Virus record (IMG/VR): IMGVR_UViG_2703718784_000020
Reading direction: 5' to 3' (one strand)
DNA from: a virus
Taxonomy: Duplodnaviria > Heunggongvirae > Uroviricota > Caudoviricetes
Length of the DNA: 36,587 nucleotides
Shown one piece after another: positions 25,137 to 26,166 of this stretch. The first letter of the stretch is position 1. Each line of letters starts with the position of its first letter. The position numbers and the translations under genes were made by a program. Below the pieces are notes generated by a model. The model was not told where the DNA came from. It did no database searches and worked only from the letters and a program-made list of their open reading frames with translations.

Positions 25137-25343
25137 CTAAATACGTTTCACAATACCCACAAGATTGCCAGGTGACAGTTCTGCTGTGTGTTTAATATCG
25201 TCCACTATGTACGATGCATGTTCACGGTTAATCGCATAGATATAAAATGAGTACTTCCGTTCATCTGCCATAAAGTCGACAGAAAATAATTTCCATGTAC
25301 GCCCCTCGACTTCAACCTGTAACGGCATATTTATTCCGCTCAC
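25137..25343 (-). CDS. Hypothetical protein (cargo, next to cos)
   Basis: 68-aa ORF, moderately AT-rich, last gene of a minus-strand cluster; no recognisable motif. Confidence 0.45.
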   Translation of the reverse strand: MSGINMPLQVEVEGRTWKLFSVDFMADERKYSFYIYAINREHASYIVDDIKHTAELSPGNLVGIVKRI

Positions 25344-25369
25344 GCATAGTCTCCTTTTGAAAATTCTAA

Positions 25370-25816
25370 TTAAATATTTTCGTTACGAAGCATGGCGGCG
25401 CGGCAGGCTTCATCAACCATAGCTTCTACGTTTTCGAGAAGTACGTAACTGTACTGCTGCCCACTAACCCATTCTTTTCTGCGAGGTAATGCGCGTGGGT
25501 CAGATACAATAGCTCGCAAACGTTCCAGAACAGCTGGTACTGCTGGCGGCTCGCGATACAGCGAGATTACACGACGCGGGTCCGCATATTTATCTGGCGG
25601 ACACTGAAATATCTCACCGAAACCATACTGCTTGACATCACGCAGTTCCTCATCATCAGTCCATGCAACAGGTTTCGCTTCCAGCGATGCCAGTGCAATT
25701 TTAAATGCAGTAAGCATGTTGTTTTGATCTTCCTCGAGTCCGAACGGTATTTCATCCCGTGCTGACTCAATACTGGTAATCGTTTTCTGTAGCCATTCTT
25801 TGGTAATACTGGTCAT
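25370..25816 (-). CDS. Hypothetical protein (cargo, next to cos)
   Basis: 148-aa ORF with tight spacing to its neighbours; no recognisable motif. Confidence 0.5.
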   Translation of the reverse strand: MTSITKEWLQKTITSIESARDEIPFGLEEDQNNMLTAFKIALASLEAKPVAWTDDEELRDVKQYGFGEIFQCPPDKYADPRRVISLYREPPAVPAVLERLRAIVSDPRALPRRKEWVSGQQYSYVLLENVEAMVDEACRAAMLRNENI

Positions 25817-25826
25817 GTGTTACTCC

Positions 25827-26090
25827 TTAACCCGCAGTGCTTTCAACTGATGAGGGGAACAAAATCGTTTCATCAAATCCGGCATTCGTATCATGGACAG
25901 CAACACACCAATCCATCGACGAACGATTATCAAGAGCCTCCATGATTTCATCCATGCGGCGCAGGTCATACAGGTAAATGTTTTTATCGCCAATGGTGTA
26001 AAAACCAATTTTTTTCGGTGACGGGCAGCGATCAAGAACGTTCTGTAATTCGCTCAACCATGCCTGTTCCCTTTTTGTCAAAGTTGCCAT
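25827..26090 (-). CDS. Hypothetical protein (cargo, next to cos)
   Basis: 87-aa ORF with RBS AAGGA upstream of the ATG at 26090. Confidence 0.5.
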   Translation of the reverse strand: MATLTKREQAWLSELQNVLDRCPSPKKIGFYTIGDKNIYLYDLRRMDEIMEALDNRSSMDWCVAVHDTNAGFDETILFPSSVESTAG

Positions 26091-26113
26091 ATCACTATCC
26101 TTTAGTTCGTTGG

Positions 26114-26166
26114 CATCAGGGCGAACACGCCCTGATGTTGTGTTATTCAGGAAATAACGCCCTGAT
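26114..26166. promoter_or_regulatory. Palindromic candidate operator upstream of the three-gene cargo cluster
   Basis: Perfect inverted repeat CATCAGGGCG-AACA-CGCCCTGATG (26114-26137) plus a further direct copy of CGCCCTGAT about 30 bp away; not followed by a T-run. Confidence 0.4.

Follow-up and report, generated by a model that had tools for sequence, protein, structure and literature searches.

A mosaic trio of probable early accessory genes in the cos-proximal cargo slot of a P88-like prophage

The region analysed here spans positions 25,137 to 26,166 of a 36,587-nucleotide stretch of viral DNA (Caudoviricetes; IMG/VR record IMGVR_UViG_2703718784_000020), from now on referred to as the window, and contains three small minus-strand open reading frames (ORFs), ORF87, ORF148 and ORF68, collectively called the trio, as well as an inverted repeat. 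The window is a P88-like prophage (genus Xuanwuvirus, P2 family) integrated beside pgsA and tRNA-Leu. We consider it probable that the trio represents independent accessory cargo genes located at the 3' end of the replication-partition early operon of this prophage. An earlier interpretation made from the letters alone, referred to as the sequence-only reading, had proposed that the three genes form an undescribed defence or exclusion module with its own operator. This proposal is partly supported: the position and the variability of the site hold, whereas the private operator, the unassignable proteins and the cohesive module do not.

The three genes and their protein families

Minus-strand ORFs of 87, 148 and 68 amino acids (aa) are present at 25137-26090, as the sequence-only reading stated, and all three are real genes. 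ORF87 and ORF148 are separated by 10 nucleotides (nt) and ORF148 and ORF68 by 26 nt, and each start codon is preceded at a distance of 7-9 nt by a Shine-Dalgarno-like AGGA/AGGAG motif. The encoded proteins are soluble and acidic (pI 4.6-6.0) and lack a catalytic signature. No transmembrane segment was found in any of them, the maximum 19-residue Kyte-Doolittle mean being below 1.0 for each protein. The three proteins had been described as not assignable to any family; searches against PHROG do assign them, to families 1714 (ORF87, E = 2e-49), 660 (ORF148, E = 4e-20) and 10509 (ORF68, E = 3e-26). No trio ORF matched Pfam (at E <= 1) or NCBIfam. Profiles A1, A2 and A3 yielded nothing meaningful by sequence in the PDB, no relative of ORF87 or ORF148 was found there by fold either, and a literature search on protein accessions and PHROG id returned no match.

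ORF87 aligns over its entire length with PHROG 1714 (1-87 of 87), a family of unknown function. Its homologues form 122 clusters across Enterobacterales with a constant length of 87 aa, identities down to 47% and 12 invariant columns. The orf-87 product of phage ST64T is a full-length homologue with 60% identity, and its gene is part of the early-left operon, in the neighbourhood of abc1, abc2 and eaa. Relatives also lie in the early regions of Chivirus genomes, where gp45 of BSPM4 is 71% identical to ORF87, and further family members are found in Av-05 and in Vibrio and Yersinia phages. The identity of the gene located 3' of ORF87 differs by phage and can be ORF148, a DUF550 protein or Eaa1. 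ORF87 recurs as cargo of P88-like prophages, specifically in 13 of the 80 loci fetched from IMG/VR, elsewhere in the slot, and in an O104:H4 prophage, and a homologue is listed in Table S5 of Rousset 2022 (PMC9122126). The AlphaFold model of ORF87 is confident (pLDDT 89) and shows an alpha-beta-beta-alpha-alpha-beta arrangement for which no fold relative was found.

ORF148 belongs to a family with more than 1,100 homologues and has a modular layout: a variable helical N-terminal part is followed by the linker IALASLEAKPVAW, an EaA-like middle part (EaA matches cover 25541-25700) and a nearly invariant C-terminal domain of about 50 aa. The AlphaFold2 model reaches a pLDDT of 68.6. Many relatives run on C-terminally into DUF551, resulting in proteins of 220-235 aa, and some carry the Ead_Ea22 coiled coil (PF13935) instead of the N-terminus seen in ORF148. 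ORF148 itself matched neither Pfam Ead_Ea22 nor DUF551 (PF04448) at E <= 1. A relationship to lambda Ea22 was rejected based on an hhalign probability of 0.1% for profile A1 and a BLASTP E value of 17. The C-terminal domain AVLERLRAIVSDPRALPRRKEWVSGQQYSYVLLENVEAMVDEACRAAML (25387-25547) is nearly invariant across hundreds of mosaic prophage proteins and is often located 5' of DUF551. It appears to be both a functional module and a substrate for homologous recombination that joins gene cassettes.

ORF68 aligns with positions 1-62 of the 64 positions of PHROG 10509. Homologues are present in 147 phage records, and an alignment of 11 sequences shows 16 invariant columns. Its relatives are mainly found in Kagunavirus and in phages of about 150 kb, at 46-66% identity. 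PGAP leaves ORF68 uncalled in a near-identical genome, and in the second sample that carries the trio it is called as a 63-aa protein. Profile A3 of ORF68 gave no match in the PDB at E <= 10. One 60-aa relative, encoded at 2504-2686 of locus L092 from Kagunavirus ULINTec2 (MZ997838), is labelled "putative RNA polymerase inhibitor". The idea that ORF68 is a T7 Gp2-like RNA polymerase inhibitor is unsupported, as no alignment to a Gp2 sequence was obtained by BLASTP.

Mosaic origin of the trio in a hypervariable slot

The gpA-gpQ locus is a hotspot of P2-like phages, about a quarter of which carry a partition system there (Rousset 2022, PMC9122126). The trio is located at this locus, between replication gene A and the portal gene, with parM and parR intervening on the gene A side. 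The sequence-only reading correctly placed the trio between gene A and cos and omitted the two partition genes. For a survey of the slot, 80 IMG/VR loci were fetched, and 72 loci were measured, comprising 71 P88-like relatives with a measurable slot plus the window. Across the 72 loci, the cargo ranges from 535 to 2,327 bp and falls into approximately 35 gene arrangements, in agreement with the claim that the trio sits at a variable, cos-proximal P2 hotspot. In loci L073 and L074, the cargo exceeds 3.7 kb, with the cos side at the end of the fetched DNA.

Cargo genes on the same strand mostly encode small lambdoid-type proteins, namely ClpX zinc-finger proteins (33 loci), proteins with an Ead/Ea22-like leader, XF1762 and ORF87. 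In some of the loci, larger genes on the opposite strand are found instead, for example encoding transmembrane proteins of 176-201 aa or proteins of 268 and 399 aa. A 381-aa helix-turn-helix protein and a 183-aa protein are encoded as a pair on the parR strand. Such occupants of the slot, seen in L010/L012/L035/L046, L054, L024/L026, L007/L008/L045, L009 and similar loci, resemble defence or exclusion genes more closely than the trio does.

The trio had been described as a compact operon, and its distribution does not bear out conservation as a unit. The full 1,061-bp trio segment is found in one of 5,426 complete E. coli genomes, parts of it being present in 1,394 genomes, and the same trio was seen in one further sample. 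None of the 71 IMG/VR P88-like loci with a measurable slot carries the trio, and neither ORF68 nor a full ORF148 was found among the 80 fetched loci. Each of the three families also occurs apart from the other two.

Boundaries between blocks of different ancestry could be placed at 25098/25099, 25547, 25797 and 26103/26114 (Table 1). The block containing ORF68 and the 3' domain of ORF148 matches the cargo of a different P88-like prophage, NZ_CM171611, in which the gene order is ClpX zinc-finger protein, 104 aa, XF1762, 69 aa and 240 aa; the match there is to the 240-aa protein plus ORF68. The ORF87 block matches the ea or nin-like regions of lambdoid and P22-like phages. In one P22-like ea region, the order is Ead_Ea22 gene, ORF87, ORF148 and DUF551 gene, with ORF148 being 97% identical to the copy in the window and separated from ORF87 by the same 10-nt gap. 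The GC content of the cargo is 41-47% vs 54-58% for the backbone. These matches show the trio to be an apparently recent recombinant patchwork and not a conserved unit. In the simplest history, the prophage would have acquired the ORF87-ORF148 block from a P22-like or lambdoid prophage, out of its early-left (ea) region. The crossover would have taken place in the nearly invariant 3' domain of an ORF148-family gene that already resided in the slot together with ORF68.

A backbone hairpin at the upstream edge of the slot

The perfect 10-bp inverted repeat and the extra half-site reported by the sequence-only reading are present. The arms CATCAGGGCG (26114-26123) and CGCCCTGATG (26128-26137) match perfectly and fold as a 10-bp stem, the 111-nt region giving a z-score of -4.5 relative to shuffled sequences. 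On the sense strand, the repeat starts 5 nt past the parR stop codon. The third half-site, CGCCCTGAT, is missing from PhiR44_2 and from locus L005 and is thus not conserved in all relatives.

The repeat had been interpreted as an operator private to the trio. This does not hold, as the repeat belongs to the backbone: its first base, 26114, is the point from which homology to P88-like backbones resumes, while cargo-type homology stops at 26103. The same repeat is located 3' of parR in P88, PhiR44_2, locus L005 and a buffalo-milk E. coli prophage, and in the P88, PhiR44_2 and buffalo-milk prophage context the gene that follows it encodes a ClpX-type zinc-finger protein. The exact repeat is found in 40 of the 72 loci and a hairpin folds at this spot in about 60 of the 72, whichever cargo follows. 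The loops vary over a constant stem (GCAU, GAGU, GUGU, GUAU and GAAC), and some loci have an alternative stem, CCAGGGCGG-AAA-CCGCCCUGG, at the hairpin position. The hairpin is a backbone element located at the upstream boundary of the cargo slot and is not a property of the trio.

The stem of the hairpin is strong. On the sense (minus) strand, the hairpin is followed by CCAACGAAC, which has no U-tract; a terminator-like score was obtained on the plus strand only. From these features, the hairpin would serve the par transcript as a structural element or the slot edge as an insulator. It could act as a 3' stabiliser, attenuate transcription in part or block antisense transcription coming from opposite-strand cargo. 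A role as a ParR site was also considered and rejected, as the palindromic repeats upstream of parM differ from it in sequence.

Partition module and expression of the cargo

The partition module consists of ParM, ParR and two upstream 38-nt repeats, that is, all components of a ParMRC system, the centromere role of the repeats being a presumed one. The repeats contain the palindromes GCGGGATTTAAAAATCCTGT and ACGGGATTCACAAATCCCGT, with one copy located in the A-parM intergenic region and the other inside the 3' end of gene A. These repeats (CGGGATTT...AATCCCG) upstream of parM likely represent a parC-like centromere and ParR operator, and they are unrelated to the CATCAGGGCG repeat. The parMR genes are kept at 93-98% identity while the genes 3' of them are swapped freely, so that the trio lies outside the conserved par unit. 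This complete ParM/ParR module is found in a chromosomally integrated prophage (beside tRNA-Leu) that also has an integrase. For the partition system of P2-like phages, Rousset 2022 (PMC9122126) proposes only plasmid maintenance as a role.

Pattern and consensus scans revealed no minus-strand promoter-like site between parR and ORF87. The best sigma-70-like match in the consensus scan lies in the switch region and is directed into the early array. Given the lack of a promoter between parR and ORF87, the shared strand with A, parM and parR and this promoter match, the trio would be co-transcribed with the early operon; transcription would continue across the hairpin and stop before cos. A weak terminator-like hairpin located 48 nt beyond the ORF68 stop codon, inside a conserved block at 24640-25098, is a candidate for the end of the early transcript. 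Low-level expression of the trio in lysogens would be possible from a ParR-controlled parM promoter, provided that this promoter is active there.

Proposed function and alternative explanations

The slot is bounded by the GC-rich hairpin after parR and by the weak hairpin and T-run near cos, and we hypothesize that the trio is expressed by read-through from the early promoter and possibly also from the ParR-controlled parM promoter. Each protein would act separately as a small, soluble, acidic and non-enzymatic binder of host or phage proteins during early lytic development, with host takeover, lysis-lysogeny tuning and counter-defence as proposed roles. Chivirus and Kagunavirus phages are virulent. 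The presence of the families in non-temperate genera and in lambdoid early operons argues for early lytic roles and makes a system that protects the lysogen less likely. The exo-xis/ea genes of lambda act as early modulators and are dispensable, exo-xis genes being reported to tune the lysis-lysogeny decision, and Ea22-type proteins have a mosaic build and an acidic C-terminal domain (PMC10834534).

Several points weigh against this interpretation. The proposed role of the proteins as early modulators that bind other proteins is based on analogy. Between 15 and 32% of unknown P2 hotspot proteins are predicted to be antiviral (PMC13586616), and the locus is a documented hotspot from which three of eight cloned P2 systems were active (PMC9122126). 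The fixed spacing of ORF87 and ORF148 in two very different phage backgrounds could indicate a functional pair and not mere linkage. Further, if a promoter near parM were active in the lysogen, the trio could be expressed constitutively, like a conversion or defence gene.

According to a narrower version of the accessory-gene interpretation, the trio genes encode counter-defence (anti-immunity) proteins that act at infection or induction. The proteins are small, acidic and soluble, they are encoded in the fast-turnover accessory part of the early operon, and their families are found in lytic-type phages. Relatives of ORF87 are encoded in the P22-like early-left operon that also contains the anti-RecBCD genes abc1 and abc2, and counter-defence genes are overrepresented in the accessory regions of enterobacteriophages (bioRxiv 10.1101/2023.04.06.535777). 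However, searches detected neither homology to a characterised anti-defence protein nor a matching fold, and the characterised exo-xis/ea genes act on lysogeny and the host cell cycle, not on immunity (PMC10834534). We regard counter-defence as a serious but minority possibility. A related and rather doubtful proposal is that one trio protein, or the travelling ORF87-ORF148 pair, is a new kind of phage-encoded inhibitor directed at a host or competitor-phage target, acting either in counter-defence or in single-protein exclusion, and that the hairpin sets the read-through of the par transcript into the cargo.

If instead one gene or the ORF87-ORF148 pair acted as a single-protein superinfection-exclusion or defence factor, low expression in the lysogen from the parMR promoter would be expected. 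The share of predicted antiviral proteins at this hotspot given above, the recurrence of ORF87 in P88-like cargo together with its presence in the Rousset table and the adjacency of ORF87 and ORF148 across phage types are consistent with such a factor, yet the families are frequent in non-temperate genera and early lytic operons, most Sie-type exclusion factors are membrane proteins and the trio proteins are not, and neither a PADLOC signal nor a promoter of their own was found, so that we consider it unlikely. A lysogen-expressed defence or exclusion module made up of all three genes and controlled via the CATCAGGGCG inverted repeat, which is essentially what the sequence-only reading envisaged, is very improbable. 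Its position matches the P2 old/tin hotspot, the genes are tightly spaced on a single strand, and Rst_3HP, a set of three hypothetical proteins at this hotspot, is a validated defence system. Against this stand the backbone nature of the repeat and its occurrence beside unrelated cargo, the recent mosaic origin of the trio, whose families occur separately elsewhere including in Chivirus and Kagunavirus, the lack of a promoter-like site, and the tiny size of the proteins, which have no effector-like domain or transmembrane segment. None of the three ORFs matched a family of PADLOC-DB 2.0.0 at E <= 1, and BLASTP detected no similarity between the trio and Rst_3HP (nothing better than E = 2), Tin or Orf91. 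The sequence-only reading had also named what would speak against it, and the homology to early proteins and the lack of conservation as a unit are findings of that kind.

Finally, the trio could encode accessory parts of ParMR, such as adaptors or regulators, with the hairpin as a second ParR site. The genes lie directly 3' of parR on the same strand and one copy of the half-site is located within parR. This explanation is barely credible, given that parMR is highly conserved while the genes 3' of it are replaced freely, that the likely ParR sites are the repeats 5' of parM with their unrelated sequence, and that all three families are found in phages showing no adjacent parMR.

Prophage context

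The coordinates of the main features are listed in Table 1. At the left end of the window, the host gene pgsA (1-549) is followed by the tRNA genes Gly, Cys and Leu (701-1002). The prophage gene set comprises ogr, D, tail genes, head genes, the terminase gene gpP and the portal gene gpQ, and the right end carries a repressor-like gene and an integrase gene (35586-36587) on the plus strand. The minus-strand early array is unbroken from about 33.6 kb to 25.1 kb and includes gene A, parM and parR, with the trio last. The flanking DNA is 91-96% identical to phages P88, PhiR44_2, Chuche and Shae_phiSM, and relatives such as P88 and PhiR44_2 align on either flank of the cargo and not inside it.

The query region is 100% identical in E. 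coli STEC2018-607, with 3 base differences across the overlapping 9 kb. One of these changes codon 626 of gene A, which is TAA in the window vs GAA in STEC2018-607, whose protein is intact (940 aa); the remaining single-base differences are located at 22748 and 29474. The truncated gpA of the window would reflect either a defective prophage or a sequencing error.

Table 1. Coordinates of the cargo slot and surrounding features in the window.
Feature	Position	Strand	Description
ORF87	25827..26090	-	87-aa soluble acidic protein, PHROG 1714
ORF148	25370..25816	-	148-aa modular protein, PHROG 660/60/5117
ORF68	25137..25343	-	68 aa, GTG start (alternative ATG 25328), PHROG 10509
Mosaic block A	25099..25547		ORF68 and ORF148 3' domain; 96% identical to cargo of a different P88-like prophage, NZ_CM171611
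Sub-part of block A	25387..25547		Also 94% identical to lambdoid prophages; likely crossover zone
Mosaic block B	25797..26103		ORF87 and ribosome-binding site; 96-97% identical to ea or nin-like regions of lambdoid/P22-like phages (VSe13, PDP110P1, E. coli C6 prophage)
Backbone hairpin	26114..26137	-	Perfect 10-bp inverted repeat, 4-nt loop, directly 3' of parR
Third half-site copy, CGCCCTGAT	26158..26166		Within last codons of parR
parR-like gene	26143..26454	-	Plasmid_stab_B, 103 aa from ATG 26454; PF10784 (E = 4e-24), phrog_2515, PGAP
parM	26459..27418	-	Actin-like plasmid segregation ATPase; PF06406 (E = 2e-82), PF21523 (E = 1e-68)
Two 38-nt repeats	27451-27488 and 27524-27561		Palindrome CGGGATTTnnnnAATCCYG in each
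Replication gene A	27495-30317	-	Broken in the window by in-frame TAA at 28440-28442
Best sigma-70-like promoter match	34095..34123	-	TTGACA-17-CAAAAT; switch region; consensus scan; directed into early array
Weak terminator-like hairpin	25064..25089	-	GTGCA-CAAATT-TGCAC then AAT8; pattern scan; conserved backbone
Cos-side backbone, portal to cargo slot	24648-25098		93-97% identity in all P88-like loci
Portal gene gpQ	23601-24647	+	
Terminase gene gpP	21850-23601	+	

The cos site was not located, as the P2 cos 19-mer GGCGAGGCGGGGAAAGCAC has no match in the window with up to 3 mismatches allowed. At 24956-24982, CGGGCTGTTCCCCCGTCACC is followed by TGCGCGC, resembling the situation in P2 and P4, where TGCGCGC comes after the cos 19-mer. 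Based on this resemblance, the CGGGCTGTTCCCCCGTCACC region may be a candidate P88-type cos.

Two further observations concern the tail region. On the minus strand, a 412-aa ORF (9588-10826) adjoins the tail-fibre assembly gene and has a weak match to glycosyltransferase family 9 (heptosyltransferase). It matches PHROG 36326, has no PADLOC match and lies approximately at the position of the second P2 hotspot (Z/fun). It could be a conversion gene that modifies lipopolysaccharide. In P2, the genes FI-FII-E-T-U-D follow each other in a single direction. The arrangement in the window differs from this order, with the sheath-to-U block (3916-9491) on the plus strand and the neighbouring D (2649-3890) and ogr (2346-2606) genes on the minus strand.

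Significance and comparison with known systems

The trio represents ordinary modular exchange, that is, recently shuffled and uncharacterised early genes in an already catalogued hotspot, and would not surprise a specialist. For the P88-like, ParMR-carrying quarter of P2-like phages, the hotspot can be described as the 3' cargo slot of the early operon, bounded by a conserved hairpin and a backbone terminator, and this slot draws from a pool of uncharacterised ea genes shared with lambdoid and P22-like phages. As a widespread and compact protein with a confidently predicted structure and no known fold relative, ORF87 (PHROG 1714) is a reasonable target for functional screens.

P2 old and tin are expressed in lysogens from their own promoters. 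The trio occupies the same place relative to gene A, cos and the portal gene and is similarly hypervariable among relatives, but it is encoded on the early-operon strand without a promoter of its own. ParM/ParR versions of this hotspot, some of them with an Ead_Ea22 or ORF87 homologue, are included in Table S5 of Rousset 2022 (PMC9122126). Rst_3HP, which protects against P1, likewise consists of three unannotated genes at the same hotspot, whereas its proteins Hp1, Hp2 and Hp3 are 333, 359 and 227 aa long, compared with 87, 148 and 68 aa for the trio. The small early genes of Kagunavirus and Chivirus include relatives of ORF68 and ORF87, respectively, which are themselves uncharacterised.

Similarity is also seen to the ea (exo-xis, early-left) genes of lambdoid and P22 phages. 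The ORF87-ORF148 block is 96-97% identical to copies located between Ead_Ea22 and DUF551 genes in P22-like prophages, the middle part of ORF148 is shared with EaA (P22 EaA type) and the LEAxPVAW linker is typical of these mosaic proteins. Like ea-region genes, the trio genes are small, encode acidic proteins and look non-essential. Unlike them, they are located in a P2-family phage, 3' of parMR, and not in a lambdoid pL operon.

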